Origin: an uncultured Pseudobdellovibrionaceae bacterium | GTDB taxonomy: Bacteria; Bdellovibrionota; Bdellovibrionia; Bdellovibrionales; UBA1609 | Direction of reading: 5' to 3' | Length of the DNA stretch: 64,000 nucleotides | Assembly (NCBI GenBank): GCA_963803705.1 | Contig: CAWDNU010000004.1 | Coordinates: 399,943 to 463,942, forward strand | Shown here: piece by piece, positions 18,968 to 47,795 of the stretch | Position numbering within the stretch: position 1 is the first letter of the stretch | How the letters are laid out: each line of letters starts with the position of its first letter | Notes under the pieces: generated by a model | The model's database searches: none | What the model was told of the DNA's origin: nothing | What the model saw: only the letters and a program-made list of their open reading frames with translations | Program-made: the position numbers and the translations under genes

Positions 18968-19627
18968 CTAAAGTCTAAAATGAAATCCACATACCACACC
19001 AAATTCTTCTAAAGTAGCTGGAGTATCTGAAACGTCTACGATTGAAGACGAGGTAAAAATTTCTGGCCTTAAAATTAAGTTAGGTGAAATTTGGTAATCA
19101 AAACCAATATGAACACCCATATAAATTTGTGAAGAGGTCACATCTTGAATCACATCTGTTTCGCGTTTCGTTTTAGCAATTGCTAATCCAGTGCCCAAGC
19201 CAATAAACGGAGCCCAAGTTTGCACTGTTATAGCCGATCCTAATCCCCCAGTCGGTATGATGGGCGGAGAATTATAAAAATAGCGCCTTAGAATTAAGCC
19301 AGAAAAACTGACCCCGGAACTGAAAGGTCCTAATCTAAAACCCCGTCTGTGACTAAATGCCAAAGAATACTTTGTGGCTATAAATGTTTCAATGCTTACA
19401 CCTAGCATGCCTGGGGTTTCGGCTCTTGATAAATCAAAAGTTTGAGTTTCAACTATCACCTCTTTATCTATGCCCGATCCACCATATCCAATCATCCCGC
19501 CGTATATGAAATCGGGTTTAAACCTTAAAGCGTGGGCTTCATTGATTAATAGAAACTGAAATATCAGAAAAAAAATATAAAAGCGTTTACGACTAGGCTG
19601 CAACTGACAATCCCTTAGCGTTATCAT
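18968..19627 (-). CDS. Hypothetical envelope protein, possibly a small OM beta-barrel
   Basis: The signal-like segment FYIFFLIFQFLLINEAHA is followed by Gly-rich amphipathic strand-like segments. The likely start is the internal Met (MITLRD...). It overlaps the 3' end of the upstream gene. Confidence 0.4.
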   Translation of the reverse strand: MITLRDCQLQPSRKRFYIFFLIFQFLLINEAHALRFKPDFIYGGMIGYGGSGIDKEVIVETQTFDLSRAETPGMLGVSIETFIATKYSLAFSHRRGFRLGPFSSGVSFSGLILRRYFYNSPPIIPTGGLGSAITVQTWAPFIGLGTGLAIAKTKRETDVIQDVTSSQIYMGVHIGFDYQISPNLILRPEIFTSSSIVDVSDTPATLEEFGVVCGFHFRL

Positions 19628-21380
19628 CTTTCTTTTTAATCGCGTCTTCCAATGAAATAACATTAGTTAAGACTAGATTTTCAAGCCTATTATGTAAAGA
19701 ATAAATTAAGCGCTCTTTTTCAACCACAGCCACCAAATCACTGCGAGATAGATCGTCCTCTAGAATTTGCTTAGCCCTAGGGGAGATTAAACCTAAAATT
19801 GTATCTGTCATATTTGGAACAATCCTTAAGTAAGCCATCAACTCTTCGTTAGTAGAACGCTTGATTACCACCTCTTGAGACTCTTTTTTCCAATCAGCAA
19901 AAAAACCTATATGTGGATTTTTTTGCTTGAAAGTTTCAACTACGGGTCCTTCGACTTTCGGTAAAATTTTGCAAGCGTCAATGTAGGACATACTTTCAAC
20001 AAGCTTATTTAGTGTCATTGACATTGATACCTCAGATTCGGCAACCTTTTCTTCGAAGTAAGGTGCAATTTGAGTTTCTATATCGTTCAACTTATCTTGA
20101 CTGATGGAACTTAATTTTGCTGCTGTATTTAAGAGCTCAACTTTTTTATCATCAGCTAGTTTGGAAAAATAATTCTTTCTTAAAGACTCTGGCATATACA
20201 GCGATACGACGGTTTGAATATCGATATCGTTACCTAGCAGTACCTGATTTACAGTGCCAAGCGAGCTGCTACCTAAGAAAGAAAAAGGTCTGTGTAAAGT
20301 GTCAGTACCAAGATTTAGTGAAGCCACTAGATCCCAGTAAGTACGATTTGTTACATCTAATCTTTTTTCTAATGGCAACTCTGACATTTTAGAAAAAACA
20401 TTACCCATTTCCTTTTTATGTTCCTTTGGAATAGGCAAGCTTCCTAAGACACTTCCAGAAATTTCTGCAAAACACGCTATTTGCATTAAACCTGTTTCGC
20501 CCTGCTCGCACCACTGTGCCACTAGCTGATCCAATTGCGTTACAAGTTTAGGCGATAGGTCTTTTATCTGATCAGATACGGCTTCAATTTTGGTGTCTAA
20601 AGCCAAGTCTATGGCAGCTAAGTTAGATTCTTTCGAAGGGCTTGAACCACCTAGACCTTCTGTTGCAGTCATCTCGGATTTACTTTCAATATTAACAGAT
20701 GCGGCCTGGGCTTGATCTTTAGATTTGCCACCACTTAAAAGTCGCCACAGTACAACGCCCAACAGTATGGCCAGTGCCAAAATAAGCTGTCCCACCAAAC
20801 CCTGCATCTGAATGATGCGGTCTAAGGTTGATGGATTAGTTGTTTCAGATTGGATAAATTGCACTTGGCTTTTACCCAAAGCGCCAAACTCTTCTTTAAC
20901 CCGCGCTTGCAACCACTCTTCAATATTACTTTTAATTTTATTGCCCATACGCTCTTGTAAGCCTACATTAACCATTACAGACTTAACTGCATACTTGGCT
21001 AAAGGACTTACGCTTGCAGCATCAACACTTTGGTAGCGATCAAACAAAGTGTCGGCGTCTAAATATCCCAAGTCTAAATCTGTGTACTGATCGTTTTGGC
21101 TTGATAGCTTTCGGTTTTTATCCTTGCTCTCATCCATAGTTTCTAATTCAAACCTTGCGCCTACATTAAAACGTTCAAAAGTGATCAATGCAGAAAGTTC
21201 TTGAGAATACCTGCGAACAATCATGTCTTCAAGCGCAGCTTTCACGCTAATCTCATCAGCTCTTTTTAGTGGTGAAACAGCGTTGACCGACTTGTTGCTA
21301 CTTATTTTTTTTGTGTTTTGGGAAAAGCCATGACTTGAAAAAAAAATAATCAAAATTGGTGCTGCTAACTTTAATTTCAT
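19593..21380 (-). CDS. Membrane-anchored protein with a FliG-like middle/C-terminal (rotor torque-helix) domain
   Basis: The signal peptide is MKLKLAAPILIIFFSSHGFSQ. A ~190-aa extracytoplasmic region precedes the TM helix LVGQLILALAILLGVVLWRLL. The cytoplasmic part contains PFSFLGSSSLGTVNQVLLGNDIDIQTVVSLYMPESLRKNYFSKL and NEELMAYLRIVPNMTDTILGLISPRAKQILEDDL. These resemble the FliG FxFL...LL and ...MSxRAAxMLREDL segments as I recall them. Confidence 0.55.
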   Translation of the reverse strand: MKLKLAAPILIIFFSSHGFSQNTKKISSNKSVNAVSPLKRADEISVKAALEDMIVRRYSQELSALITFERFNVGARFELETMDESKDKNRKLSSQNDQYTDLDLGYLDADTLFDRYQSVDAASVSPLAKYAVKSVMVNVGLQERMGNKIKSNIEEWLQARVKEEFGALGKSQVQFIQSETTNPSTLDRIIQMQGLVGQLILALAILLGVVLWRLLSGGKSKDQAQAASVNIESKSEMTATEGLGGSSPSKESNLAAIDLALDTKIEAVSDQIKDLSPKLVTQLDQLVAQWCEQGETGLMQIACFAEISGSVLGSLPIPKEHKKEMGNVFSKMSELPLEKRLDVTNRTYWDLVASLNLGTDTLHRPFSFLGSSSLGTVNQVLLGNDIDIQTVVSLYMPESLRKNYFSKLADDKKVELLNTAAKLSSISQDKLNDIETQIAPYFEEKVAESEVSMSMTLNKLVESMSYIDACKILPKVEGPVVETFKQKNPHIGFFADWKKESQEVVIKRSTNEELMAYLRIVPNMTDTILGLISPRAKQILEDDLSRSDLVAVVEKERLIYSLHNRLENLVLTNVISLEDAIKKKDDNAKGLSVAA

Positions 21381-22091
21381 TTAGCATCCTTAGCTTTTGT
21401 ATTAGTTTCGTCTTCTGGTTTATCTTTAATATTTGTGTTTATAGCTGGATTGTTTGCAGGCAATCGTGTTGGAATTCTTAGCGTGTCTCTTACTTTACCG
21501 GCCATATCAATAGCAGTTTTTAGTTCAGGATTAACGGCAAGGGCATTTTCGTACCATTTTAAACTTTCTTGAAACTCGCCTTTGGCATAATGAATGGCAG
21601 CCTTCATACTTAGCGCTCGATCAAACTTTGGAAAGACTTCTAAAAATCTTATCAATTTCTATCAGCGCGCGTTCAAGTTGCGAGGTGCGTGCAAATTGCT
21701 GGGATAAAAATAACTTTTGCAGTAAGTCTTGGGCTGTTTTCAACTCATCGGTGCTACTAGTTGTTGGATCTAATTTTAAAACCAGCTGAGTTCCTAAATT
21801 TCCACCAGCATTTATAGGCACCCATAAATCTTTAGTTTTAAAACCATCCTTACGAATAATTATATTAACTAAACCACCTGGATAATTCTGACCTTTTAGA
21901 TGCTCATCTAATTCTTTACTGGTTTTCAACAAAGGAGTTTGGCCTAGGTTTTTTTCATCTTTAGTTTCTGGATTAACAACGAAGACTTCTGCCAGCTCGG
22001 GGTCAGTAACAACTTTAAAAGACGCTGTGCCGCAAGAAGTAGTACCTAAAAGCAACAAAACTAACTTAAAACCATATAAAAATCTATTCAT
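21377..22091 (-). pseudogene. PEGA-domain lipoprotein fused to TPR repeats, split by a 1-nt frameshift in a homopolymer (track ORFs 21621-22091 and 21377-21655)
   Basis: The upstream part has the lipoprotein signal LLLGTTSCG and the PEGA-like FKVVTDPELAEVFVVNPET...GQTPLL. Its tail ...ARTSQLERALIEIDKI continues as LEVFPKFDRALSMKAAIHYAKGEFQESLKWYENALAVNPELKTA (TPR) in the other frame. That continuity requires removing one base of the A5 run at 21642-21646. Confidence 0.55.
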
Positions 22092-22220
22092 AGAAAACCC
22101 TTCTTTCTCCTATATTTTATCGAGTTTTTAGGCCTTTTGCTTGATACATAAAACAGGTATTCTATACCTAAGGCAGGTCTGGAAATTTAAGATAAAATTG
22201 TTGCACCAGAATCGAAAGTT

Positions 22221-25200
22221 TTACAGACCAACGTCGACACGAATAGACGACTGCTTAAGAGTTAGATTTCCTGCACTTGGACTAACTTTGGTAACAAAGT
22301 TTTGGTTTACCGGAAAACCTGTTAACTCTGGACTTACATAGAGAGTTATATTGTCTGAATTTACAGAACGCTCTGATAATCCAAGGTCTATTAGATTCAT
22401 ACTTCCGCTATTTTGATTGTGATATTGTAAACTTACCAGTCCATCAGAAAATCCGTTGTCTTCAACCAAAGCCTGAAAATAAAACTTAGGGGCTAAAAAT
22501 TGGTTAGAATCAATCTGAACTTTTTCATCGAAGTAGGTTGTATCAGAAGACGTAAAATCTTTTTGGTTAGTGATTCTGTAAGCAACACTGGCTTTAGACA
22601 AATTAGTAAGTTTTACCCACAGCCCTGCTTTATGCACTTTAACCTGTCCAGATGAGCAATAAAATTCACACCTCATCACAAGTCGGTACCTTTGGCCATT
22701 ATTTGCCGAATCAAAGTGCTGCACTCCCTCGTTAAATGGAACCTCGGCTAGCCGTAAACTAGTGTCAGTAAAGCGAGTCTCTGTGAATGGAACAATCTGA
22801 GAATTTCCAACATTTTGAAGAGCTATTTGACCCTCTGCTCCGCCGTCAGTTGAAACTACTGCTTCTAAAGTCCATCCATTGAAATTAGAAATTTTAGAAA
22901 GTAGATTTGAATTTTTGATCCACCTGCTTGAGCTGGAATAGTCATTATATATATTTTGATTAGTTGATGATGCATAAATGTCAGAGTCCGTATTCGAAGG
23001 TGAAACCAAGGATGAAATAAGTGGGTAGTATATTTTTGTTTTTGTAGCGTTAGTTTGGTTCACTAAAAGCTTTGCGGTTAAAACGCTTAGTTCGCCATCA
23101 CTTGTTGTTTGCTCTAACTGAACTCTGTAAATGTCTTTTCCTGTAAAACCACTTATAGTTGATTTAAATCTTGTAAAGTCCAAGGTGTTTGCTGGAACGT
23201 TTATAGAGTCAACCACTGCATCCGAGCTGTCCACAATCACAACTGCGCGAGAAACACTGTCAGCATTTTGAGCAATAACCTCGATCTGGTAGCTTGTAAT
23301 GCCATCGTAATCACTGACATTGAACGTTGTCTGACTTCTTTCAAAAGCTAGATCTGTAATGCTACTTGAAGACATCGGAGTGTCAGTCAACTCTATCGGG
23401 ACCTGAAGTTTAAGTGAGCCGTCTCGAAGAATGGAGACTACATTTGACGACAAAGTTTTTCTTCCGTCAGCATAGACACCTTCAACCCTGTAGTGGTAAG
23501 TCGTGTCAGAAATCAGATCAGTGTCTTGGTAGCTAAGTATTGATGCAGTCCCAACCACGCCGAATGGTCCCGTAATACTTTTTGATCTTAAAATATTATA
23601 ACTAGCTACACCAGCTAAACTGTTCCAATTTAAATCAATTGAGTTAGAACCATTAACTGCAGTCAAACTTGCCGGGCCACTCACTAAGATAACGCCCACT
23701 TCATTAGAATTTGCAGACATAACCCCTGAAGAGTTAGTTGACCTAATAACATAGTAATAACTTGCTCCGGAAGTTACGGTGGTATCGTTAAAATTTACAT
23801 CGCCGGATGTCGGCAAAGCTATTTGTGCATAGGGTCCACCTTTCACTGTAGATCTAAGCAGCTGATAGTTTTTAATATTAGGAACTGCCGACCAGTGAAG
23901 GGTTAAACTACTATTTGAGTTGATTACTGCATAGAGTGCTCGCGGTACTTCAGGCACAACGGACAAATTAATCGGGTCACTAATTTGCGACACGCTCATT
24001 TCGGTGCCGCTAGCATTGAAAGGCTGATATTTATAAAAATAAGTTAAGCTAGGATCTACAACCAAGTCTGTGTGAGTTAAAGCAGTTAAATTAGTAGCAA
24101 TTTTTTGAAAGGTGACCCCATTCGTCGACCTTAAAATATCATAAGTTGTAGCACCTAAAGTTGCATCCCAATTCACCCTAACTTCATTAGCAGAAAGAAA
24201 TTGAGCCTTAGGTTTATCTGGCCTTAAAGAGGGTATGATCTTTACTTCATTTGAAGCAGGGCTTTCGTTAGATCCATTTAATGCAGTTACACGAAAAAAG
24301 TAAGTTGTACCATTCGTTAAACCAGTAATTCTAGTCCCACTTGAAGTATTAGAACTTTGAATTGGCGCTCCATATGATCCCGAAGTGGTGGACATATATA
24401 CATTAAATGAGTTTCGATTTGATATCTCGCTCCAAGTTAAAACAATCTCTGTACCAGTGTTATTGTTCTCTGCATTTAAGTTAGATGGCGCTAAGGGTAT
24501 AATTCCGGGACTAAAACCCAAACTTACAGGTGATTCTTTATCAAGCACACCAAAGTGAGCGATAACTTTATAGAAGTATATTTGTCCGTTAGTGGCTGCT
24601 AAATCTGTAAAATTGGTCATAGAATAATTTGTAGCTATTGTTGAAAAGTTGACTCCGTCAGTAGACCTTAACAGATCATAACTAATAGCTCCGCCGACGG
24701 CAGACCAAAACACTTGAACTTGATTATTGCCCACTGTTCCCGCTGGCTGCTGAGGTAAACCAAAAGTGTATGCTGACACTACATCAGAATCAGAAAATGA
24801 CATACCTATGATAGCCCGAACTTTAAAGAAATGTTCAGTCTGCGGGCTTAGTCCGAAAACATTTCGGGTGGTGCTTAGCGAATTTGAAACTAAAGTAAAG
24901 GGTCCAGAAAAATTTAAAGCTTTAAAAACTTGATAACTAGTTGCACCACTGACACTTGGCCAGTTTATGACCGCCGAGGTGTTCCCCGTGACTGTCACTG
25001 ATACATTTGAAGGCCTAGTTGAATCTGATCGTTGTCCAGTCACTACATTTGATTTTTTTCCTTCCGTTAAGTCTGAAAATCTAGCCCGAACCTTGTAGTA
25101 GTACCCGGTATTAGTGACAACCCCTGTATCAGAATAAGTTGAACTCACCGATGTGTCGTAATTAACAAATGGACCCGTTATAGTATTGGACCTAGAAATA

Positions 25201-28200
25201 ATGTAGCCAGCTGCTGCGCTGACGTCGGACCAATTTAAAACTAGTTGGGTAGTTTGCACCATTAAACTTAAGTCACCAATGGGCGCGTGGCGATACTCTA
25301 CAGTGTTAGAAGCTGGAGTTTCATATCCACCCCATAAAGCCGTGACTCTAAAGTAATTTAATCCTACAGATAAAGGGGCTGAAATTATGTTTGCATTCAG
25401 CGATGTGCTAACAACTGTAAATGGGCCCAAAGGGTTAGAAGACCTATAAATATTAAATGAATTGAAATGACTTGGGGATGTCCAAGACAGCTGAGCTCTG
25501 GCTTCTTCTTCTATATAATTTATGACTAAGTTACTAGGCAAGCTAGGATTGGTAAATGATCGACCAGAACTAAGGGTAGAAGGATAAGCTACGTAGATGT
25601 AGTCGCCATCCCCATCTATTAAGTGTGCTTGGACATAATAGTAAGCGCCTGATCCATTGGGACTTGTATCCGCAAAATTTCTTGATGAAATATTGTTAGC
25701 TATTTTTGTAAAGGTTCCATCGGGATCTGTGGATTTAAAAACATCATATTTCAAATCACCCGAGAAAAATCCTGAAGGAACATTTGGAGCATTCCAGCTT
25801 AAGTTAATACTTGCGTCACCTGGTCTAACTGTTAAGTTCGGAGCATCGGACGAGTAAAAACCGTACAACTGAAATTCACCACTTACGCCAGATCCCCAAT
25901 CGGTTGCCAATTTATAATAATAAATATTATTCGAATTAAAACTACAGTCATTATAAAAAGTTGTGGACACGGTAGCAATAGTATTTGTAGTGCCCTTATT
26001 GTTTCCTCGATAAACTCTAAAGCTTTCGAAATAAGGGGGGGCAGTCCATGCGGCCCTTACTCCTCTTGAACCAGAGCACTGCTCTGAGCTGCTCACAGGT
26101 GTTATAGTAAAATTGATAGGCGGGCTAGGAATTTGTTTTGGGGTGGCCGTCACAATATTAGACTGCATACTTTCACCAGCGGGGTTACTTGCAACAACGT
26201 AGTAATAGTAGGTTTGGTTATTAGTTAAACTTTGGTCTCTGTAGGATGTTGTCGATGTGCTAACAGACAAATCGGTAAAAGGGCCACCAAATTGTATGGA
26301 CCTAAACAACCTATAAGTCATGTTTTGAGGAAAGCCACTCCAAGATAAATTTACCTCGGCATCAGAAATAACAGCTGACAAACTATTGATTTGAACAGGG
26401 TTTGGGGCTGTCACTAAAATTGAAACTTCAGAGGAATTTTGACTTCGACCTGTAGAATTATTTGAATACACTCTATAAAAGTAAGTTGTGTTATCAGAAA
26501 CCTGAAGGTCAGTAAAATTGTTAGAAATTTGTGAGCCACTGATTAAGGTAAATGGACCACCCGAAGATAAGCTTCGTTCTACATTATACATAGGCGCAGG
26601 GTTAGAAAATGTGTCTGGAAACCAATTGATTCGAACCGTTCCATTTACATTTAATGTCGCTGTTATATTTGAAGGCGGTAAGTTGTAGTGTGTGAAGTTT
26701 GTTAGAAACCTGCAAGCAGAGCGTGTTCCAACTTCATTAATTGTTTGGCCATATATTGAAGTTAGTTGGTTCAAAGCTAAAGTCACAGGCACACCTGTTG
26801 AGGTAAGTAAGCTAGGGTTATGATTAGAAATCAAGTTTGAACAACTAGAATTAGAAAAAATTCCTAACCCAACCCTATTCATAAAATCTGTGCTAAAGCC
26901 ATAGGATCCGCGAATCAAAATATTTGGACTGTAAGAAGGTGAACCTGGGTTCGTCGATAAAAAATTCGGCACCGCTGGCACTAAATTATTGAAAGTATAG
27001 AAAGTTAAAAAGGTGCAATCACTCGCATTACCAGCATCATCAAAGGCGCGGGCATAAATTGAACTTTCAGCGTTTTCCGCTACATTGATCAAAATACCCG
27101 CGGTCTCAAACTGTGCAGGAGTTCCTTCACCAAGCTTACTTACGCAAGACATGCTGTCATAAAAATCTACTCTTGTAGGTTGAAGTTGACTAGTAGGCTT
27201 CATTAAAGACTGACCTAAAATTGTTGGAGCAGAAGACTGATTGTTAGGCGAAATTGGAGTAGTAGATGTAAAGGTCGGATTTTCTGGAGGAACCGTATTA
27301 TGAATATAGTTTGTAAGAAAAACGCAAGACGAGTAGTTCCCAAAAACATCTAAAGCGCGCCCATAGAGTGCATTTGTTGAATTTTGAGGTAGTGTAACTA
27401 TAACCCCAGAAGATGTAAACTGACCCCTTGATCCCGAACCTATTTGCATCGGCCCAGAACAAATATTGTCTCTGTAGATGATCACTGATGCGATGCTTGA
27501 GTCAGCTGTGCCTAGTACTGAAGGCGTAAAAGATCCACTTGATGGTGATGCTGGAAAAGTTGAAACAAAAACTGGGTTTGGTGCAGGGTTCGCAGAGTGA
27601 GCGTAGCTTGCGTGAAAGAAACATGCAGATACGTTGCCCTCTAGATCTTTTACTTGCACGTAAATAGGAGTAGTATCATTGGCTTCAGCAGTGATTAAGA
27701 TACCAGATCCTTCGTAATCATCGGTCATCCCTTGGCCAATTTGTAGAGTGCATGATTCATTCTTAAAAAAAGTAAGTTCTACTGTTCTGTTAGAAGCATC
27801 ACCCTTTATTATTGGTGTCGTGGTGATGTTCGACGGTGAATTCGGAGTCAAAGATGTAAAAACTGGGCTGTCAGGAGCAAAGGTATTGTGGACGTAAGTA
27901 GTTAAACTGTCGCAGGTAGTTGTGTTTCCTGCAGCGTCGAAAGCTTTTCCAAAAATAGACGTGGTATCATTATCTCTTACATTAACAACAACGCCGTTCG
28001 AATTATAGTCTACTCGGCTACCTGAACCGATCACATTTAGACAAAGCGATGAGTCATAAAAAACAATAGATTCAGTGTCACTACTGGCAAATCCTAGCAT
28101 TTTAGGAAGAGTGGTCTGATTGGTCGGAGACACAGGATCGGCTGAGTTAAAAACCAAGTTTTGTGGCGAAATATCATCATGAGTGTAAGTAGTCAGTAAA

Positions 28201-29202: not shown

Positions 29203-32200
29203 TCACTGTCCTACTATTATCTTCATCACTGCATTAATATCGTCTAAAACTGTAATATCTAATTTTTCATCATTGTTAACGTCATCCACAAGCAAAGCAT
29301 TTGTGCTTAGTCCCGTTGGCAAAGTTTGATTACTTGAAAAATCACCCGTAAAAGAACCAAACAGCAGAGTCAAAGTTTGATCAGTCCCATTTCCGACTGC
29401 CAAATCCAGACGTCCGTTAGAGTTAAAATCACCTTTCACCAAACCGTTGGGTGATGAGCCTGCAAAAAAACTTAAAGTTGGTTCAAATTTTCCATCGCCT
29501 TTCCCTTTCAAAATACTTACTGATGAAGACAGGCTATTTGAAACTGCAAGGTCCAAGAATCCATCTGAATTTAAAAAACCAGAAACGATTCCATTAGGTC
29601 CTGATTGCACAGTGGATAGAGAAGTTAAAAAACCGCCACTGCCATTAGACAACATTGTCGTGATAGTACCGTCAGATTGATTAACGACAGCTGCGTCTAA
29701 AATAAAGTCCTCGTTAAAGTCACCAGTTGTTATATGTGTCGGTTGCGCCCCCACTGAAGTGAAGGAAGAAGCACCAAAATTTCCATCGCCAACTCCAGGA
29801 TAAAAATAAACCCGGTTTTGGCCGCTGGACGTCGCTAAAATATCTTCATGTCCATCTTTGTTAAAATCGCCATGCACCAGGGATGTGGGCTGTAAACCGG
29901 CACCGTAACTGTTGCCTGGGGTAAATACAGCGCTACCTTGACCGATAAAAACTCTGATAGCGTTACCACCATTTAATACTGTGACGATGTCAAGAATTCC
30001 ATCCTCATCCAGATCTACAAAAGTAACGTCAGTAGGACTGTTTCCAACCACTATGTTTCCATTCGCTGAAAAGAGCCCGCCGCCATTACCCATGTAAAAC
30101 GAAATCAATCCAGCTGAGCGACTTACAACTGCCTTGTCTAGGATTCCATCTGCATTTAAATCTGCGCTTATCACCTTCACCGGTCCACTAGCAACTGAAG
30201 TTACAAAGCCAAGTCGGCCATTAGACTGTCCAGGTAAAACTTGGAACTTAGATTCGCCACTTGAAACCACAAGCACATCATTTAGAGTGTCAGAATTAAA
30301 ATCACCAGTAGAAATATTAATTGGATTTATTAAAGTTTGTATTGGTTGCTGAACATTAAATCCACCATTATTTAATCCATAAAGAACCGAAACTGTGCTG
30401 TCCCCAATATTTGCAATAATTAGATCCGCAATATTATCAGCGTTTAAGTCAGTGGGTTTAACTGCGATAGGGCTTAAACCTGTAGGCGTATCTATAGCCA
30501 AATCAAAACTGTCATTCTGTAAATTTAAGAAAACTGAAACAGTATTATCAATATTATTGGTGACAATAATATCTAAAAAGTTATCGCTATTTATTTTACC
30601 CACTTCAATGTCCGAAGGTGCAGAACCAGTGCCGTAAACATCTTGGGTTTGAAAGGTTCCATTGCCGTTATTTATAAAAACACTCATTGTATTGTCAGTT
30701 GAATTTAGTACTGCAATATCATCAAATGAGTCATTATTAAAATCACCGACCACACTTTTAGTAGGTGCCTGTCCGGTGCTATAGATTGCTGGCGCCTGGA
30801 AGGTACCACTACTGTTTCCCATACGAACTGCAATCACATTGGCTGCCACTGAAACAATGACTGTATCTAGATATGCATCTGCATTAAAGCGCCCTGTAGA
30901 TATAGAAACTGGAAAATTTTCAAAACTGCTTACAGCTGTATTTTGTGGCGGATCAAAAGCACCGTTACCTCGACCAGCTAAAAACGAGTACTGTCCGCTT
31001 CCACTACCTGTACAGGTCATTATAAGATCCATATTGGCATCACTGTTAAATAATCCGTAGCTCATACTAGAGGGGCTATTACAAAGCCCATTGATTTTTG
31101 GAGGACTAGCAAATAAACCGTTTCCTTGCCCAAGCTTCACACTGACTGAAGGTTCTCCTTTATTTAAGACCAACACATCTGAAAATCCGTCATTGTTAAA
31201 GTCAGCAACTACAGCGTCGTCAGGACTGTTACCAATCTGAAAATTTAAATCAAAAGATCCAGAATTTCTAGACTGGCTTAATAGTAAAAATCTAGCCTTA
31301 GCGTTTCCAGTTCCAGCTAGATCAGGTAATAATCCTGTTAGTGGTAAAACTGATACGTAAGACCTGTTGGCGGTGTAGCCCTGAATCACCGAGACGGTAG
31401 CTAGGCCACTAGCGTTAGTAGTGCGATTAAGGTTACCAATCAAATGGACATCACCTGACGTATTTTGAAAAACCAAAGGGAAATTACTTACTCCGTTTCC
31501 AAACCGGTCAGCAACTTTTATTACAAGTGGCTCTGAAAAACTTTGACCAACGTAAGAAGATTGATTGTCACCATTTACAGTAGGAAATTCAAAGTGATCA
31601 GGTACGTCAGCTAAAACTTGAACATTTATATTCCGAGTGAAGCCTTGATTGTCAGTGACTCTTAAAACATCTGTTACGCCAGCAGTTGTTCCTGCGGTGT
31701 AGGTCCTTATTCCTGCATTATAAGTTGCACCTGATGGGTTTGCTGTAAATTGCACATTGTAAGGTGGTGTGCCACCTGTGATGCTAAATACTTCATCAGA
31801 ATTTACCGCAACTTGGGGGTTAGCTGGAATTACATTTAAAGAAAGCTTCTGCCAAACAAAATTAGCGCTCGCCTGATTTCCAGCCTGGTCAGTCTGGCGA
31901 ACTTCAATATTGTAGTTGGCGTCTACAAATTTTGGAAGATTGATACTAAATCTGGAGCTTGCACATTTAACACTTCCAGCACCATCTAAATGCAAACTAA
32001 TAGTTGCTCCGTTTTCGCATCCTCCGGTAATATTTAGCACGGCTTCACTTGAACTGTATGGATTTCCGATCGGATTTGTTATAGAGGGAACAGAAACACT
32101 AGTCTTTCTGTTCCAGACAAATACTGCTGGTGAAGATATTTTACCTGCAACATCTTGGGTGATAGAAAAGGTGTAAGTCCCATCAATACTTGCTAACAGA

Positions 32201-38350: not shown

Positions 38351-38699
38351 ATATCGCCTTTTTAAATTTATATAAAGATTTCGTTAATGGGGCATAACCT
38401 ATATAGTATTTATCGACTTTTATAGAAAATCTCTCTAGCTTTTTTTACAGTAAATTTAAGTTATCTTAATTTTCATGGCTTAGATTAATACAGTAAACTT
38501 AGGTCAAGGTTCACTTAGTTTGGCAAAGATTAAGCAGGGCTTACAGCTTAATAAAATATAGAAGTTCGACAACTTAGTTGAATAAGTTTCGAAAATTCTC
38601 AGTATGAAACACTATTTTAAGGAGAATCTTTTAAATTGATGGATGGGGCTGCAAATTGAATTTAAGATTAATTTTTAAATTAAATATGAATTTACTTTT

Positions 38700-39773
38700 T
38701 TAAAAACTAAGTGATATAAAGGCGTTGAACTGATCAGCATTTATACTTTCATTTTTATCTGAAAATTTGTGACTAGCGTATGACAAACCGTATTGCAAAC
38801 GCCTTAAATTATTTAAATTTTTAGTCCAATCCAAATTAAGTTTAATTGTCCGTTCCCCGAAAGGATCTGAAAAATCGTAAGGTGTAATTTGTAATTCCGC
38901 AGAGTAGCTGTCTTTTGCAGATCTGTAAAGTTCTGTTCGAAGACCAAAATTAGCACCATATAAACCCGAGAAACCAAAAGAGCTGCCTAAAGAAAATAAA
39001 TTTATTGTTGATGCTCCGAAGGTTAATCGACTTCTATACTTAGGATTTTTAGTTAATTTGACCAGCAAACTTGCTCCGGCCCTAGCGTCAAAAAATTGAG
39101 GGTTCTCATCCACTGGCGATGAGGAATAGGTAAATAATGTTAAGTTGGCGTCTGCGAAGTAGCCAATTTTTCGTCCTTTTTCTGGAGTGATATATTTAAC
39201 ACCAACTAACATAGCTTGAGAAACAAAAGTTCCAAATGAGGTTTGTCTATAAATTAAATATGAATGACCAATACTAAAGAACACAGAGTCAAATAGTGAC
39301 ACCATCTTAAATTCTCTAGCCTCTGGAGCAAACAGGTAAAATGTTTCTGTCTGCACTTCATTTTCTGGACCTACAGACGTCAAAAAAAGTGTGCTTATTC
39401 TTGATCGCAAATAAGCGTAAACGACATGCGTTCCTTCTGCATCTAGTCTTCTGACAGGTTCCTTATCGCTTAAAAACAGTTGCCATCCAGGTTTATTATA
39501 ATCAAGTTTCATCTTTACCATTGGCCTGAAAGATTCGCCTTGAGGCACTAAATAAACTGGCAGCTGCACCTGCGAAAGCTTTAGCTCAGGTAACCGACTT
39601 GGTGCCTGCTTGTCTCTTAGAATGTGCGCCACCCACAAAGCTTGTTTAGTTTTTAACGCTTCAGGTTCCACTGTTTTTTTTTCCGAAATTCCAACGGCAG
39701 CTTTGGTTTCACCATTTGCAGTTGAAATAAACTGGCTAATTACTACAAATGAAAAGAAGGCTTTCAAGAACAT
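38700..39773 (-). CDS. Putative outer-membrane beta-barrel protein
   Basis: It has the signal peptide FSFVVISQFISTANG, alternating strand-like segments in the C-terminal ~200 aa, and the terminal aromatic ending ...FISLSF. Confidence 0.5.
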   Translation of the reverse strand: MFLKAFFSFVVISQFISTANGETKAAVGISEKKTVEPEALKTKQALWVAHILRDKQAPSRLPELKLSQVQLPVYLVPQGESFRPMVKMKLDYNKPGWQLFLSDKEPVRRLDAEGTHVVYAYLRSRISTLFLTSVGPENEVQTETFYLFAPEAREFKMVSLFDSVFFSIGHSYLIYRQTSFGTFVSQAMLVGVKYITPEKGRKIGYFADANLTLFTYSSSPVDENPQFFDARAGASLLVKLTKNPKYRSRLTFGASTINLFSLGSSFGFSGLYGANFGLRTELYRSAKDSYSAELQITPYDFSDPFGERTIKLNLDWTKNLNNLRRLQYGLSYASHKFSDKNESINADQFNAFISLSF

Positions 39774-39814
39774 AGTATAAGGGTCTCAAAAAGCAATTGT
39801 TTATACAAGTTTCT

Positions 39815-40822: not shown

Positions 40823-40910
40823 AAGTACTACTTCGGACTATTAGCCCGTATAATCTATGGTCTAGGTAGTATTTCTAGACGAAAATGCGGGCAAATAAGT
40901 TTGACAATTT

Positions 40911-43900
40911 TTATGAACTTGGAATTTCAGTTTCACTCGGTTCAACTTTGCCAGGCGGCAAAGGCGGCACGGGTATAAATTCGCTGGACTTTAAGCTTAA
41001 AATTAAAGATTGAGCCTTTTTGTCGACTTCCTGATTGGTTTTAACCAACAACTCTTTAACCTCATCACGCTGCTTAACCAATTGTTCATATTGGTTTTCA
41101 AGTAAAGCTCGCTGAGGTCCAAAAACATTAGACTTAGTCATTAAAACTTCAATCTTAGAGATCTCTCTTTCGGTTATTTTCAAGTAAGGATTTAGTGGAT
41201 TAAACTCTTTGGTAGCACGTAATTCCGAAGAAATTTGTATTATCTGTTTTTGTAAACTGCCTTTTTGTGAATCAACCCATCTAGAATACAGACTCAATTG
41301 CTCTTCCCTTTTCTTAATACTGTGTAATGCAGCATCAAGTTCATGATTTTTCTTCTTGATCTTTGCATATAGGTCCTTGTTTTCGTCTATCTCATTTTGT
41401 AAACTCTGTTTTTGATTAAATACAGATTCGTACTTAGTCCCTGCGTCCACAATTTTGGACCCTAGATCGACGGATCGAAATTCAAGATCTTTAATGATGC
41501 CCGCCAACTTAGCATTCTCGTGCTTTTGGATTTCTATTTTTTTTGTCTTTTCAGAAAGATCGATAGTGGTTCTTCTTTCAAGCTCTTTATAATCTTTTTC
41601 TTTTATCTCAGCTTCATCTTTTAACTTGGTTAAGGTCGCATATTGAAGGTTGAAATCAAAATCTTTCTGCTTTAAGTTTATGTTTAAATCTATAATTTCA
41701 TCGCTTAAACTTTGATTTTTTTTCAAAAGCTCATCAGATTCATCAGATTTTACATCCAACACTTCTTTAAGTGATAAAATTTCAGTGTTCTTATTATCTA
41801 AGGTGGCCTGAAGCCCATTCAATTCTAGTAGCTGTTCTTTTTTATCATTCATAAGCAGACTTATATCAGCTTGTAAAAAACTGTTTTCTTCAATAAGTCC
41901 ACTAATTTCAATATTTAGGTCCACTATCTTATCATCAAACTCTTTTTCGCACAGTTCTAATTTGTAAAGATGAGCATTTTGAATCTCTAGGGTACGACTT
42001 TTGTTAGCAATTTGACTTTCTAAGTCTGTGATCCGGTTTTCCAAATTTTTATTTATACCAATCAAAACACCATGTTCTTCAGAAGATTTATTAATAAGTC
42101 CTTGCTTCGAATCAGCTTCTGCTTTTTTATCTTCATAGCTTAAACCTAATAATCTTTTTTCTTCTAACAGTGATTCTTTTTCTAAAGCTTGCGAACTTAA
42201 ATCCTTTTGCAGGGAAATATTCTTCTCTTTTAAATCATGAATCTTATCCTGTAAGCCAGTGGCTTCAGCAATTAGGTCCTTTTTCTCGAATTCTAATTGA
42301 TCAAATAATATTTGCTGTTTTTCAAGCATACTATTTTTGTACTCTAACTTCTGATTTAAACCTAAAACCTCTTCCTTCAGCCCATCATTAAGTGTGACTG
42401 AAGATTTATGGTCCCTAATAGAATCATCAATTATCTTTTGCTTGGAAATAAGCACGGTCTCTTTTGATGACAACTGAATTTTAAGCTCTTCAATTTTTTG
42501 ATGGGCATCTAAAATTGTTGAATTTAGCGACTTTTGTCGCTGTTCACTTACACTCATGCTTTTTTTGTTTTCAATAATCTCTAGTTGAAGCTCATTTAGT
42601 TGAACGTTTACAGCAGATATTTTATCTTCAGACTCAGCCCTAAAATCATCTGATTTTAAAACTTCATCCTGGTACAAAGAAAGTTCCGCAGTTAAATCCT
42701 CATTTTTTTTCTTTAGCAAGACTTCTTGCGTTTCCAATCCGTTAATTTTAATCTCTAGCAATTCTAAATCTCTTAAATTATCTGCTATCTTTTGATGAGC
42801 CTGAACTAGAATTTCAGAAATTTTATCAATCTCAATTTTTTTATCTTTTTCTAGTTTTGAAATTTCTGTTTCAAATTCTATTTTCTGATCTTTAAGGCTT
42901 AGTTCTAACTTTTTATTGTTAGCCGCAAGACTCTCACTTTGCTTTATACTGACGCCATAATCTTGTTCTAAAAAATCTATTTTATTTAAAGCCACAGACA
43001 ATTTTTCCAGTACAGATCGATTTTGTTCTTTTTCGTAACTTAAGTCTTTGTCTAAATTTTTAAACTTCACCTTCAGTTCTGAAAAATCTTTTAGTTGTCT
43101 TTCAAGCTCAACCATCTCGTCAGTTTTACTTTCAAAGGTTTTTCTTAAAACAGACATTTGGTGCCCGACCATTACTATCTGCTCTCTTAAATTTTTATTA
43201 TCTTCTAAAGCTGTTTTTAAATCCAGGCTCTTGTTTTCTAGGTCTGTGTCTGAAGCCTTTATGCTGGCTTCAAAACGATCGATTTTTTGTCTTTGGACTT
43301 GCAACTCGTTTGATTTTTTTCCTATTAGCTCTTCAGCTTTTTTTAGATCGGTCGCCACTAAGTCAAAAGACTCTTGTAGTTCTGATTTTTGAAGTAGTAT
43401 TTTTTCAGACTGTTGTTCGTGTTCCAAAACCAAGTTGTCAAATCGCTCTGTCCAACTTTTGTTTTCGCGGTTTAAGTATTCGATTTCAGCTTTATATTCG
43501 TTGATTTTTTTAAGGTTTGTTTCACTCTCTACCATTAGTTTCTTATATTCAGATTTTGATAAACTAAGGTCTTTGCTTACTAAAATAACTTTTTGATTTA
43601 AACTTAGCCGCTCTTGTTCAAATGATTTGAATTTTTCTTGATAAGAAAGAAGGTCATCAATTTTTTTATTTAAGTAATTAATTTCTTTTGTTTTCTCGTT
43701 CAACTCAGTGTTGAGTGACGACATTATTTTTTTTGAAACTTCTTTATCTTTATTAAATTTAAGTTCTAACTCTTTTTTATCGGATTTTAATGATAGATTT
43801 TGGCTACTTATCTCTTCGTTAGTTTTATTTACTTCAGCTAATTGATTACTTGATTTAGTATTATTTGCAGCAAGTTCAGAAATATAGGTTTGTAGCTGTT

Positions 43901-44510: not shown

Positions 44511-44520
44511 TAATAAACCC

Positions 44521-45990
44521 TTATTTAAAATCTTTTAAATTCAAACCTGTCTTTGGCGGCAGCGCTTTGGACCCATCATAATTAACTTTCATTAGATCTA
44601 CTTGTGATTTCAAATAGGTTGATTTTAGTTTAATGTTTTGGGCTAAATTATTAATTTTGCCAGCCAACTCTAAACTTTTATCTTTCCCATTTAGAAAGCT
44701 ATCTTGCAGTACATGAAGTTCGAAAATCATTTGAGTCACTGTCCCGTAAGCTTGGTATAGAGTTAAATAGTAAATTTTTGATTTCAAGTCAGCGGACTTA
44801 AGCTGCTCAAACATTTCTACGATATTTTTCTGTGTTCCAAGCCAGTCTACTGAAAAACGATTCCAGGCGGCTAAATTTTTGCTACTCAGCGAGCGATTAT
44901 ATATATTCAATGACTTTTGATACTGTCCTAATAAAGTTTCATTTAGATCAATCAGTTCATTTAACTCTATCGACGCGCTTTCTCTGGCTTTAGAATGAAA
45001 ACTTTCCAGTTGTTGATTATAACTACTAAGTCCCGACAGACCAAACTTATGGGTAGAGCTATACAGTTCTAAATTTTTCTTATCACAACTCAAACACGTA
45101 ACAGACACGTTGTACTCTCCTGCAGGTAGGTACTCGCCTTGATCGCCTCGAATTGCGCCGGTTTGAAAATATGGGCTTGTTAGGTTTATTTCTACCGACT
45201 TACCAAACCTAAATGCATTTAAAAGAGAATCAGGATTGCCCTGAATGTCCACCCTAATTTTAGATGCTGAAGGCAAATTTACGCTACCGACAAAAACCGG
45301 GTCTTTAAATGGCGTATCCTTTTCGTAAAAAACTAAGCTGGGGTCTTTTGTTGTAGCCGGTTTTTTTGCATTTGATATCAATTGAGCTTTAATCTCGGTG
45401 GGTAAGTCGCTGATAAATGATTTCGCTGAATACAGATTGTTAATTAAAATCCCGAAAAGAAAAAGAAGGGCAATTGATGAAAGGCCCAATCCAACTTGGT
45501 AATACCTTATGTTATCTTTGTTAAGTCCTAACTGACGTCCTAATAAAAAAGCACTTTGTTTCATTATAAACTTGAAGCTATTCATTTTATCAACCAAACC
45601 ATCTTGGCCTTTAATGCTGACTACTTTTACCGAGTCTAAATTTGCAAAGCTCATTTCTTTGTCTTGAAATTTAATTCGATCGATAGACCCAAGTTGGGCC
45701 TGAAACGAAAAGTCATTATCTGAAATGTTTTCGATATCAAAGGTCCCGCAAGAACGAAAACTTTCGATGCACTTTAATGAAATCCATGCTTTAAGTCCTG
45801 GTCGCCAAATATGGTGATCAATTGATATCAGCCTATTTAAGAGCAGCTGATTTACCTGCTTGGTTGTAAGTGGACCAAAATGCCTAGTCTGGCGAAATAT
45901 AAACCAATCACCTAGTTCGTGGCCGAGCTCAATTTGCTTAGGGTTTAGAAAATTTTCATTACCAGTGTCTGGTGCTTTATCTGTATTCAC
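44521..45990 (-). CDS. GYF_2 (DUF4339)-domain membrane protein with a large extracytoplasmic C-terminal region
   Basis: The N-terminal WFIFRQTRHFGPLTTKQVNQLLLNRLISIDHHIWRPGLKAWISL fits the GYF_2 pattern. There is a single TM helix (GLGLSSIALLFLFGILINNL). The gene is 10 nt from the downstream gene. Confidence 0.6.
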   Translation of the reverse strand: MNTDKAPDTGNENFLNPKQIELGHELGDWFIFRQTRHFGPLTTKQVNQLLLNRLISIDHHIWRPGLKAWISLKCIESFRSCGTFDIENISDNDFSFQAQLGSIDRIKFQDKEMSFANLDSVKVVSIKGQDGLVDKMNSFKFIMKQSAFLLGRQLGLNKDNIRYYQVGLGLSSIALLFLFGILINNLYSAKSFISDLPTEIKAQLISNAKKPATTKDPSLVFYEKDTPFKDPVFVGSVNLPSASKIRVDIQGNPDSLLNAFRFGKSVEINLTSPYFQTGAIRGDQGEYLPAGEYNVSVTCLSCDKKNLELYSSTHKFGLSGLSSYNQQLESFHSKARESASIELNELIDLNETLLGQYQKSLNIYNRSLSSKNLAAWNRFSVDWLGTQKNIVEMFEQLKSADLKSKIYYLTLYQAYGTVTQMIFELHVLQDSFLNGKDKSLELAGKINNLAQNIKLKSTYLKSQVDLMKVNYDGSKALPPKTGLNLKDFK

Positions 45991-46962: not shown

Positions 46963-46976
46963 CTTATCGGCTCCAA

Positions 46977-47795
46977 CTAGGCGGCTTTCTTCGATTTATT
47001 AGACAAGCTGCTGGCAACTTGCTTTAAAGCGTCCCTTTCACTTGGAAGTAAATAACTTTTAATGTTTTCTTCTACTAATAGAGGATGCTTTTTTGCACGT
47101 ATCATTCTCATACCATCAATGATCATTTGCCGTGTAATTTTGTCCTGACGGTTAAACTTAGATAAATTTTCACCAATAGGTATGAAGATAAAATTTGATA
47201 AGGCTATACCATATAGCGTTGCAACCAGTGCCACGGCCATCTTAGGCCCAACGTTTTTAATTGCATCTGCACCACCTAAGCTTTCCATCAGACCAACCAT
47301 TCCCACGACTGCGCCTAATAAGCCAAATGCTGGTGGAAATTTGGCTAAAGTTGTAAACATACTGGCGTCTTCTCCGTAGCGTTTAAAATGGGTAGAAGCT
47401 CTTTTTGTTAGTATCAGATCAATCTCTTTTTCCGATAGCCCTCCATCAATAGTAAGTTCAATAGCTTCTTTTAAAAAAGGGGTCTTTATATTCGAAACAG
47501 CTTTTGAAAGATAAGTGTCATCATTTCTGTAATTAGTCGCTAGATCGACCATTTCTATGATGACGTCTGAGTATTGCTTTTGCGTACTTTTTAGCACTTT
47601 ACTGGCAAAAACTTTACAAAGTAAAACAATGTTTTTCGCTGAAAAGCTTAACATTGCAGCGGCTGCCGTTCCGCCAATTACTATTAAACCCGCGTGCCAA
47701 TCTAAAAAAACTAAAGGGTTTTTTGTAGATGTTAATGCGATTGTCAAAAACACTAATAGTGCTAAAATTAGCCCTGAAGCCGAGGATTTATTCAA
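46977..47795 (-). CDS. motA: MotA/PomA-type stator protein
   Basis: FPPAFGLLGAVVGMV and MAVALVATLYGIALSNFIFIPIGENL match the conserved TM3/TM4 of MotA/PomA. The gene lies 14 nt upstream of motB. Confidence 0.85.
   Translation of the reverse strand: MNKSSASGLILALLVFLTIALTSTKNPLVFLDWHAGLIVIGGTAAAAMLSFSAKNIVLLCKVFASKVLKSTQKQYSDVIIEMVDLATNYRNDDTYLSKAVSNIKTPFLKEAIELTIDGGLSEKEIDLILTKRASTHFKRYGEDASMFTTLAKFPPAFGLLGAVVGMVGLMESLGGADAIKNVGPKMAVALVATLYGIALSNFIFIPIGENLSKFNRQDKITRQMIIDGMRMIRAKKHPLLVEENIKSYLLPSERDALKQVASSLSNKSKKAA

Follow-up and report, generated by a model that had tools for sequence, protein, structure and literature searches.

Gene Content of the Locus

We analyzed a 64-kb stretch of DNA from an uncultured Pseudobdellovibrionaceae bacterium (assembly GCA_963803705.1, contig CAWDNU010000004.1, positions 399,943 to 463,942), hereafter the window, and all coordinates given below are window positions unless a locus is named. 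At 18968-47795 the window carries a cluster of genes, all on the minus strand, for a MotA/MotB stator pair, a membrane protein with FliF-like and FliG-like parts, three giant lipoproteins, and a set of accompanying proteins. The initial annotation of this DNA had described thirteen consecutive, tightly packed genes. The tight packing and the shared strand stand, and the listing of open reading frames (ORFs) shows 13 ORFs; the number of genes is reduced to 12, since two of these ORFs, PEGA and TPR, belong to one gene that is split by a 1-nucleotide (nt) homopolymer indel. From the motA end, the cluster reads as follows.

46977-47795, minus strand: motA, 272 amino acids (aa), PomA/MotA-type stator A subunit with four transmembrane (TM) helices
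46231-46962, minus strand: motB, 243 aa, stator B subunit with a TM aspartate (SYAD), a plug, and an OmpA-like peptidoglycan-binding domain
44521-45990, minus strand: GYF-TM gene, 489 aa
40911-44510, minus strand: coiled-coil gene, 1199 aa
39815-40822, minus strand: LysM lipoprotein gene, 335 aa, two LysM domains (Pfam), lipobox FFLAGC
38700-39773, minus strand: gene for a putative outer-membrane protein (OMP), 357 aa, secreted, ending in ...FISLSF
32456-38350, minus strand: giant lipoprotein gene, 1964 aa, with fn3, Big_1, and NHL-type repeats (Pfam) and a lipobox
29203-32454, minus strand: giant lipoprotein gene, 1083 aa, with 13 FG-GAP repeats and Ig-like domains (Pfam FG-GAP_3, 4e-58) and a lipobox
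22221-29135, minus strand: giant lipoprotein gene, 2304 aa, with Ig-like repeats, many fn3 domains (Pfam, 2e-24), a C-terminal domain, and a lipobox
21621-22091, minus strand: PEGA ORF, 156 aa, part of the gene for a PEGA-like and TPR lipoprotein at 21377-22091
21377-21655, minus strand: TPR ORF, 92 aa, with TPR matches in Pfam, part of the same gene at 21377-22091
19593-21380, minus strand: FliF/FliG-like (rotor-like) gene, encoding a 595-aa membrane protein
18968-19663 as called, probable gene 18968-19627, minus strand: last ORF, putative outer-membrane beta-barrel, 231 aa as called and 219 aa in the probable gene

The ORF listing reproduced the coordinates of the initial annotation, and its spacings proved exact: 14 nt separate motA from motB, 10 nt the GYF gene from the coiled-coil gene, and 1 nt the 1964-aa gene from the 1083-aa gene, and the end of the TPR ORF overlaps the start of the FliG-like gene by 4 nt (21377-21380). 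Its total of 5351 aa for the giant lipoproteins (1964 + 1083 + 2304) is also correct, and Pfam and NCBIfam bear out its domain calls, namely MotA_ExbB, MotB_plug with OmpA, GYF_2, two LysM domains, fn3/Big_1/NHL, 13 FG-GAP repeats, fn3, and TPR. The three giants each carry a lipobox, as do the LysM and PEGA/TPR proteins. As had been stated, there is no flagellar gene among the window ORFs of at least 120 aa that were scanned against Pfam. Scans for tRNAs and Rfam families were negative across the window.

In the window, an additional T within a T-run near 21646 breaks what is otherwise a single 237-aa gene into the PEGA and TPR ORFs. This run (21640-21650) reads GATTTTTAG in the window and GATTTTAG in a second assembly of the same organism (locus L003), which is identical over 21.8 kb otherwise and in which the gene is intact; it is also a single gene in all relatives. 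Either the frameshift is a sequencing error in the homopolymer, or slipped-strand variation switches a core gene of the proposed machine on and off. The last gene of the cluster probably starts at 19627, giving 219 aa, rather than at 19663.

Conservation of the Gene Set

We placed the window proteins on 17 further loci, distributed over 13 related contigs, by tblastn and called genes. These contigs are mostly metagenome bins, and the named ones are all Bdellovibrionales, Bdellovibrionia, or Pseudobdellovibrionaceae. In the 13 contigs one set is kept together, consisting of motA, motB, and the genes for the GYF-TM protein, the coiled coil, the LysM lipoprotein, the 357-aa putative OMP, the PEGA/TPR protein, the FliG-like protein, the outer-membrane barrel of about 220 aa, and the giants. 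The hypothesis of the initial annotation required that relatives keep these genes linked, and they do so, with the same set recurring in four gene orders. The motAB pair lies within or beside the cluster in every contig that shows that part (12/12), and across the loci identity is as low as about 30% in the FliG-like protein and 23% in the GYF protein.

Type A, the order of the window, runs from motAB through GYF, coiled coil, LysM, OMP, the 1964-aa, 1083-aa, and 2304-aa giants, PEGA/TPR, and FliG-like to the barrel. Within this type motAB is co-directional in close relatives (L006, L007, and L011) and inverted in more distant ones (L004/L005, L008/L001, L010, L012, and L013). In type B (L014 and L015) motA and then motB are read divergently from, and adjoin, a series of PEGA/TPR, FliG-like, and barrel genes, beyond which the 2304-aa and 1083-aa giants lie in the opposite orientation; L014 is a 3.9-Mb contig with 53% GC at the locus. 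In type C (L018) the 2304-aa giant, PEGA/TPR, FliG-like, barrel, motA, motB, and GYF-like genes follow one another on one strand, so that motAB comes directly after the barrel gene, and a reversed coiled-coil-like gene separates them from LysM and OMP, which again point forward. In type D (L019) motAB diverges from a series of GYF, coiled coil, LysM, OMP, PEGA/TPR, FliG-like, and barrel genes, and the 2304-aa giant follows in reverse. In L019 the giants are thus outside a compact block, and the comparison of loci defines a core of genes that stays together despite their displacement.

The flanks vary from locus to locus, with Fur and MscS genes in the window and genes for seryl-tRNA synthetase with an S49 peptidase, a major facilitator superfamily transporter, Suf proteins, or an FKBP isomerase elsewhere. 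Chance juxtaposition is ruled out by the recurrence of one set in four orders, between differing flanks and with identities down to about 30%. Judged from these comparisons, the grouping is far beyond chance and the gene set has been inherited together. Tol-Pal and ExbBD sets found near the cluster in L001 and L005 are separate systems that are not conserved with it.

Among 5.8 billion sequences, a word-indexed search picked up only 33 relatives for the 595-aa protein and 27 for the GYF-TM protein, and a genome scan with a GYF alignment returned 8 loci, all of them in Bdellovibrionales, Bdellovibrionia, or Pseudobdellovibrionaceae metagenome bins.

The MotA/MotB Stator

The stator pair comprises a four-TM MotA with a MotA_ExbB channel domain and a MotB with a TM aspartate, a plug, and an OmpA-like domain. 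MotA matches Pfam MotA_ExbB (5e-20) and NCBIfam MotA/PomA (~1e-40), and its best relatives in the PDB are C. sporogenes MotA (6ysf, 8e-29) and PomA (8brd, 8e-28). MotB matches Pfam MotB_plug (1e-16) and OmpA (2e-13), as well as MotB in the PDB (6ysf/6ysl, 4e-20). Both subunits score far below the NCBIfam equivalog thresholds (137 bits vs. 340 for MotA and 135 vs. 283 for MotB/MotD).

In a neighbor-joining tree a single clade unites the MotA proteins of types A and B, which share 49-88% identity with window MotA; those of types C and D are 49% and 59% identical to it by tblastn. The MotA/PomA sequences of the PDB are 28.6% identical to window MotA. In L015 a second stator set, flbD-motA(MotA_N)-motB (L015 1-1321), lies 7 kb from the type B cluster, after a gene for a cyclic nucleotide monophosphate-binding protein; its MotA shares 23% identity with window MotA and groups with reference flagellar proteins in the tree. 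That organism therefore has distinct stator paralogues. As far as sequence relationships go, the stator lineage is specific to the cluster. Stators of the MotAB/PomAB type are at present regarded as exclusively flagellar, an example being the 'FIT' clade of a recent stator phylogeny (PMC12505986).

The arginine equivalent to PomA R88 and E. coli R90 is invariant in the 12 cluster MotA proteins examined (12/12), and an acidic residue follows 2-4 positions after this loop arginine. The Zorya system (ZorAB) was considered and dropped, because the A subunit, at 272 aa, is PomA-like and the cluster proteins scanned showed no domain of helicase or nuclease type (ZorC/D-like).

A Single Chain with FliF-Like and FliG-Like Parts

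Soluble FliG docks on the C-terminus of FliF. The 595-aa protein of the cluster instead begins with a signal peptide, after which a periplasmic domain and a single TM helix precede a cytoplasmic FliG-like N/M/C region. The models and searches named below were made with AlphaFold 2 (AF2), Foldseek, and profile hidden Markov models (HMMs).

20823-21284, minus strand, residues ~33-186: periplasmic FliF-RBM3-like domain (ring-building motif 3; AF2 model and Foldseek)
20739-20813, minus strand, residues ~190-214: TM helix (TM scan)
minus strand, residues ~249-586: FliG-like N/M/C region (profile and AF2/Foldseek)
19743-19784, minus strand, residues 533-546: torque-helix segment SPRAKQILEDDLSR (HMM alignment to T. 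maritima FliG)

Several lines of evidence suggest that the cytoplasmic region is related to FliG. The single-sequence library scan gave a weak signal (Pfam FliG_M, E 0.038; NCBIfam FliG, E 6e-6, residues 378-548), and PF01706 is a precomputed match in three relatives. A profile of 28 family members matched the structure of the middle and C-terminal domains of T. maritima FliG (1lkv) with an E of 1.7e-5 over its full length, covering both domains. The AF2 model of the whole protein has a predicted local distance difference test (pLDDT) score of 68.8, with about 88-91 in the C-terminal third, and its four best Foldseek matches are all FliG, including 4fhr_B (4.5e-5), 3ajc (2e-4), and the full-length C-ring FliG 9n49_G (9e-4). 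The initial annotation had left its FliG-like assignment to profile and structure searches, and both agree with it.

The torque helix reads SPRAKQILEDDL in the window protein, MSKRAAALLKDELEY in the aligned, solved T. maritima FliG, and SQRAADILRDDL in E. coli FliG. In the HMM alignment R535 is the equivalent of E. coli R281, and D542/D543 are the equivalents of D288/D289. Among 117 diverse family members the D288 and D289 positions hold D or E in 109 and 107, respectively, and this acidic pair is also retained in the distant loci. The K264 equivalent is R or K in 71/117 members, and the position aligned to R297 is Ala in the window protein and variable across the family. The FliM-binding EHPQR motif is absent, and LLGNDxDTQ stands in its place.

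The periplasmic domain, of about 150 residues, was modeled alone with a pLDDT of 80.7 as an alpha-beta-(low-confidence insert)-beta-alpha-beta fold. Its top 16 Foldseek matches are all FliF (MS-ring RBM3/S-ring) or PrgK of the type III secretion system inner ring (E 4e-3 to 0.3, probability 0.57-1.00, TM-score ~0.5), and the insert lies at what we take to be the place of the beta-collar in FliF structures. Based on these models, the domain is predicted to have an FliF RBM3-like fold, and the protein to combine in one chain an FliF (RBM3-like) part, a TM helix, and an FliG (N/M/C-like) part. Artificial FliF-FliG fusions function in Salmonella.

A second word-indexed search, with an alignment of distant members, found 16 proteins only, and we took the breadth of the family from an exhaustive HMM search, which gave 224 representatives at 50% clustering (E <= 0.001), 142 of them at E <= 1e-30. 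Nearly all representatives are 580-650 aa long and match end to end. The named members belong to Bdellovibrionaceae, Bdellovibrionales, Oligoflexia, and one 'Pseudomonadota' bin, and a few are called 'FliG' by the Joint Genome Institute (JGI) pipeline.

The C-terminus of the FliG-like protein (19593-19601) is Ala-Ala in 26 of 28 close relatives and in 79/114 of the wide family, the rest ending mostly in -AS, -VA, or -SA. The C-terminus of MotA (46977-46985) is -(K/E)AA in 9/9 type A sequences, an ending that is absent in types B, C, and D. Both Ala-Ala ends are cytoplasmic and might act as an ssrA-like ClpXP degron or as a docking motif common to the two proteins.

The GYF Protein, Its Putative Coiled-Coil Partner, and the Envelope Parts

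The GYF-TM protein has a cytoplasmic N-terminal GYF domain, a TM helix at about residues 163-181, and, in its periplasmic C-terminal part, a conserved CxxC. The 1199-aa coiled-coil protein is cytoplasmic and K/L/E-rich, without signal peptide or TM helix and without a Pfam domain, and its gene adjoins the GYF gene in all relatives.

45769-45906, minus strand, residues 29-74: GYF domain (Pfam GYF_2, 5e-6)
40950-40982, minus strand: proline-rich tail EFIPVPPLPPG of the coiled-coil protein, conserved in relatives

The best PDB match of the GYF profile is the GYF domain of Myxococcus GltJ/AgmX (7z3c, E 1.1e-3); no zinc-ribbon was found in the GYF protein, the N-terminus of which has no Cys. The tail EFIPVPPLPP is present in every type A orthologue (8 coiled-coil ORFs of relatives) and takes the form PIPPLPP in L019. 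Between motA and the main GYF gene, L004 carries at 6388-9859 an extra 313-aa gene together with a paralogous GYF-TM protein (434 aa) and a paralogous coiled coil (381 aa) that ends in MPIPPMPPVL; the GYF protein thus duplicates together with its proline-tailed partner, as a module. Experiments in Myxococcus have shown the GYF domain of GltJ to bind the proline-rich sequence of the coiled-coil protein AglZ, a contact on which focal-adhesion assembly depends (PMC11135422). By analogy, the simplest reading is that the GYF domain of the cluster binds the PVPPLPP tail in the manner of GltJ and AglZ, the tail being a candidate ligand.

The PEGA/TPR, FliG-like, and ~220-aa genes form an invariant triad, overlapping or abutting one another, in which the barrel always comes after the FliG-like gene. 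Three of six members of the ~220-aa barrel family match Pfam OMP_b-brl (best E 2e-4), and the family has no meaningful sequence-level match in the PDB. The 357-aa protein, which has no Pfam or NCBIfam match, is a putative outer-membrane beta-barrel that shares a signal peptide and a C-terminal Phe with 5 orthologues. Orthologues of the 1964-aa giant are 55-64% identical, those of the 1083-aa lipoprotein are 1088-1098 aa long, giving 1083-1098 aa across relatives, and those of the 2304-aa giant measure 2300-2310 aa in all relatives. The near-constant lengths suggest that the giants are structural parts rather than fast-evolving or variable adhesins.

Transcription Signals

Promoter and terminator scans of the cluster gave counts at or below shuffle expectation and thus no operon map. 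Two weak sigma-28-like motifs were seen.

38410-38437, minus strand: TAGAG-N15-GTCGATAA, 60 nt upstream of the start codon of the 1964-aa gene
22117-22144, minus strand: TCAAG-N15-CTCGATAA, 26 nt upstream of the PEGA/TPR start codon

The pattern that describes them, T[AC][AG]AG-N14-16-[GC][CT]CGATA[AT], was fitted after the sites were seen; it has only these 2 matches in 64 kb, with 0.2 expected, and both lie in large intergenic gaps of the cluster in the correct orientation. They are poorly conserved in relatives. A Fur-family regulator gene (47870-48412) is divergent from motA at a distance of 74 nt, which leaves little room for a motA promoter and makes shared or metal-dependent control possible; the arrangement is particular to this lineage, and relatives have other neighbors at this place.

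Comparison with Known Motors

With the core of the flagellar motor the cluster shares a MotA/PomA-type stator with its ion-binding aspartate, plug, and OmpA-like anchor, an FliG-like N/M/C partner with the acidic pair of the torque helix, and, in the model, a periplasmic FliF RBM3 fold. Unlike the flagellum, it comes without export apparatus, rod, hook, filament, FliM/FliN, or any other flagellar gene, it joins FliF-like and FliG-like parts in a single chain that carries a signal peptide and only one TM helix, it has neither EHPQR nor an equivalent of MotA E98, and its stator and rotor-like protein are accompanied by giant lipoproteins, a GYF-TM protein, and a coiled coil.

With the Agl-Glt system of Myxococcus xanthus it shares the logic of an ion-driven inner-membrane motor joined to an envelope-spanning complex. 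Both pair a GYF membrane protein with a long coiled-coil protein that bears a proline-rich sequence (GltJ and AglZ in Myxococcus), and, going by the parts list, the TPR protein, the lipoproteins, the outer-membrane barrels, and the proposed output to a surface adhesin are alike. The analogy to Agl-Glt drawn in the initial annotation gains from the finding that the closest solved relative of the GYF domain is GltJ and from the conservation of the proline-rich coiled-coil tail. The motors differ, in that the cluster has a peptidoglycan-anchored MotAB with a plug whereas Agl-Glt is driven by the TolQR-like AglRQS, and cluster MotA scores 33.8 bits against the TolQ model, for which the cut-off is 221. 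In the cluster, Pfam and NCBIfam revealed no zinc-ribbon, TonB-like domain, MglA/MglB, or receiver domain, and no Ras-like GTPase was seen among the window ORFs. Furthermore, the FliF/FliG-like protein has no Glt counterpart, and the proline-rich sequence of the cluster stands at the extreme C-terminus of a protein without a receiver domain.

The GldLM/SprB system of Bacteroidota gliding, which belongs to the type IX secretion system, offers a parallel in logic, since it moves very large surface adhesins with an ion-driven 5:2 rotary motor and without a flagellum. No cluster protein scanned has a Pfam or NCBIfam match to the Gld, Spr, or Por families, and energy would be taken off here at the cytoplasmic face through the FliG-like domain, whereas GldLM does so through the periplasmic GldM shaft. 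The cluster thus resembles the flagellar stator and rotor, Agl-Glt, and GldLM/SprB and is a member of none of them, given that curated MotA, MotB, and FliG thresholds are missed, EHPQR and flagellar parts are absent, the motor is MotAB rather than AglRQS, and there is no Gld homology.

Proposed Machine and Alternatives

With slightly more confidence than doubt, we favor the hypothesis that the products of the 12 genes build a single conserved machine of the Bdellovibrionota, which spans the envelope, is independent of the flagellum, and is powered by its own MotA5B2-type stator. In this machine MotB would anchor the stator to peptidoglycan while ion flow turns the MotA pentamer, and the arginine of the MotA loop would engage the acidic pair of the FliG-like domain and so drive the 595-aa protein, which would oligomerize through its RBM-like domain into a ring or chain moving in the inner membrane. 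The motion would be relayed through the translationally coupled PEGA/TPR lipoprotein and the ~220-aa outer-membrane barrel, and the LysM lipoprotein and the 357-aa OMP, as fixtures of the wall and the outer membrane, may help to carry it to the three giant outer-membrane or surface lipoproteins. The GYF-TM protein would hold the PVPPLPP tail of the 1199-aa coiled coil and thereby provide a cytoplasmic scaffold for, or positioning of, the machine, as GltJ and AglZ do. Most likely, the output would be to move the surface lipoproteins or to exert force on them, as the cell glides or handles the surface of its prey. The sequences and their comparison show the conserved gene set, the domain architecture, the conserved contact residues, and a stator lineage specific to the cluster; ring formation, the contacts between the parts, and the output are what we infer. 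The initial annotation had hypothesized a stator-powered gliding, adhesin-moving, or prey-contact apparatus, and every refutation check that could be run favored it, which leaves that hypothesis partly supported.

A more specific proposal, which we offer tentatively and with the chances leaning against it, is that the cluster is a second, flagellum-independent rotary motor, in which a single-polypeptide FliF-FliG ring or track is turned by a dedicated MotAB and drives the giants by way of the TPR lipoprotein and the outer-membrane barrel. Such a motor could be the engine of gliding, which Bdellovibrio performs (Lambert 2011, as cited in bioRxiv 2022.06.13.496000), or it could be the envelope-spanning 'rose-like complex' with a 17-nm cytoplasmic ring that electron cryo-tomography has revealed at the prey-contact pole (bioRxiv 2022.06.13.496000). 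Full-text literature searches found no description of such a cluster.

Several observations weigh against a machine independent of the flagellum. Its stator is of the flagellar (PomA-like) type, and all three MotAB pairs of B. bacteriovorus HD100 are said to contribute to swimming with the single flagellum (PMC3526173, citing Morehouse 2011). The likeness of the 595-aa protein to FliG and FliF is remote: FliG_N, FliG_M, and FliG_C do not reach Pfam gathering scores, only FliG_M being detected at 14.6 bits vs. 25; canonical FliGs fall outside the best 150 matches of the exhaustive HMM search, in which only 224 proteins have E <= 0.001; and the periplasmic domain has no sequence-level PDB match and no Pfam YscJ_FliF match. 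Gaps of 240, 349, and 129 nt inside the cluster leave space for several transcription units rather than one operon, and that the giants are moving adhesins is pure conjecture on our part. At the presumed torque interface, the equivalent of E. coli MotA E98 (E96/E98) is lost, with K/Q/A/T/V in all cluster MotA proteins, and the R281 equivalent of the FliG-like protein is R or K in only 55/117 members. The pairing of MotA-Arg with FliG-Asp-Asp is kept in both partners, and that of MotA-Glu with FliG-Arg is relaxed in both; these two matching patterns speak for a contact at which stator and rotor still work together and not for a degenerate remnant.

According to proteome supplements for HD100, uncharacterized proteins (Bd3023-Bd3028) come after motB2/motA2 (Bd3020/Bd3021); some are very large, one has an Fn3 domain, and every one was detected. 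By annotation, this motAB2 locus (Bd3020-Bd3028) may be the counterpart of the cluster, resembling the type B order of L014. In that case the cluster stator could have a second role at the flagellum, or the reported influence on swimming could be an indirect one. The literature regards motAB2 as a stator of the flagellum; full-text searches on Bd3022-Bd3028 returned nothing relevant, and no paper was found on the neighbor genes of motAB2. The HD100 abundance profiles were tried as evidence and set aside, since the candidate proteins correlate with one another and equally with some unrelated envelope proteins. Epibiotic Pseudobdellovibrionaceae are missing motAB1 and motAB2, whereas motAB3 is universal (bioRxiv 2025.02.19.638989), a pattern of loss that fits an accessory role of motAB2. 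Genomes of Bdellovibrio and like organisms (BALOs) hold 1-4 motAB pairs, mostly apart from other flagellar genes, and the extra Bdellovibrio pairs affect lifestyle switching (PMC11323537).

The cluster could also be a flagellar accessory, in which its motAB is one interchangeable stator set, the TPR, barrel, LysM, and FliG-like proteins form a scaffold in the periplasm or outer membrane, or a stator-parking or clutch device, at the sheathed polar flagellum, and the giants are sheath or surface parts. TPR proteins and lipoproteins are typical stator scaffolds in the motors of Campylobacter (PflA/PflB/FlgP/FlgQ) and Vibrio (MotX/MotY/FlgT), and this parallel counts in favor of such a role, together with the PomA/MotA type of the stator with its plug and OmpA domain, the possible sigma-28-like motifs in two cluster gaps, the reported aid of all three HD100 pairs to the single flagellum, and the position of most BALO motAB pairs away from other flagellar genes. 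However, no known flagellar scaffold has a second FliF/FliG-like protein, a GltJ-like GYF protein with a coiled coil, or 5351 aa of lipoproteins, and EHPQR, through which FliG is tied to FliM, is not present. No flagellar gene was found among the scanned ORFs of the 64 kb, and among the called genes of the relatives such genes are represented only by the flbD-motAB set of L015, which stands beside the cluster stator as a separate pair. In addition, motAB2 is absent from several swimming Pseudobdellovibrionaceae, in contrast to the universal motAB3 (bioRxiv 2025.02.19.638989). We regard a flagellar accessory as unlikely.

We give still less credence to a divergent gliding machine of the Agl-Glt (focal-adhesion) type, in which MotAB has replaced AglRQS and the FliG-like protein is a static adaptor rather than a driven rotor. 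The kinship of the GYF domain to GltJ, the conserved proline-rich tail with its parallel to AglZ, the gliding of Bdellovibrio, and the match of the TPR lipoprotein, outer-membrane barrels, and large surface proteins to the Glt parts list (PMC11135422; GltA-K) would all fit it, but the plugged and peptidoglycan-anchored MotAB-type motor is not of the TolQR type, a zinc-ribbon, TonB-like domain, MglA/MglB, and receiver domain were not found in the cluster, and the family-wide conservation of the acidic pair and of the MotA arginine argues for a driven stator-rotor contact. Very improbable, and already disfavored by the comparison of loci, is a chance or historical juxtaposition of an adhesin and envelope island with an ordinary stator operon, the two having no shared function. 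Gaps of 129-349 nt do permit independent transcription, no direct evidence of co-expression was found, and the HD100 candidate homologues correlate with MotA2/B2 no better than do the few unrelated envelope proteins compared. Against this stand the retention of the set in four orders with differing flanks to about 30% identity, the placement of motAB directly after the barrel in L018 and divergently beside the TPR/FliG-like genes in L014 and L015, and a MotA phylogeny that tracks the cluster.

Neighboring Genes

Past the 3' end of the cluster lie an integrase-core (rve_3) fragment at 16135-16512 and three small plus-strand ORFs without family match (17036-18844). What lies downstream of the barrel gene is different in each relative, and this stretch may be a hotspot of rearrangement or insertion. 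On the other side of the cluster, a trio at 49439-52703 consists of genes for a putative ATP-dependent zinc protease, a 7TM-transglutaminase-like fusion, and a RimK/sugar-transfer-type ATP-grasp protein; it looks like a conserved peptide-ligase or modification triad and is unrelated to the cluster. An apparent carotenoid-type isoprenoid cluster at 55880-63708 encodes a polyprenyl synthetase, an ABC-2 transporter pair, fatty-acid-hydroxylase-family proteins, a phytoene-desaturase-like amine oxidase, a squalene/phytoene synthase, and a lycopene cyclase domain, and is unexpected in a bdellovibrio-like genome.

Implications

If the cluster encodes the flagellum-independent machine that we favor, the torque-generating interface of the flagellum would have been re-used or retained outside it, and the cluster would offer a simple model for stator-rotor coupling. 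It would also bear on whether a rotor-stator module predates, or is separable from, the type III export apparatus. Should the more specific proposal of a second rotary motor hold, a stator-rotor pair would be working without that apparatus, with consequences for how the evolution of the flagellar motor is understood. For predatory bacteria, the genes described here would be concrete candidates for an unexplained envelope machine with a part in gliding, prey scouting, or attachment, and they would offer an alternative role for the 'extra' motAB pairs of Bdellovibrio, which have been lost in some lineages.

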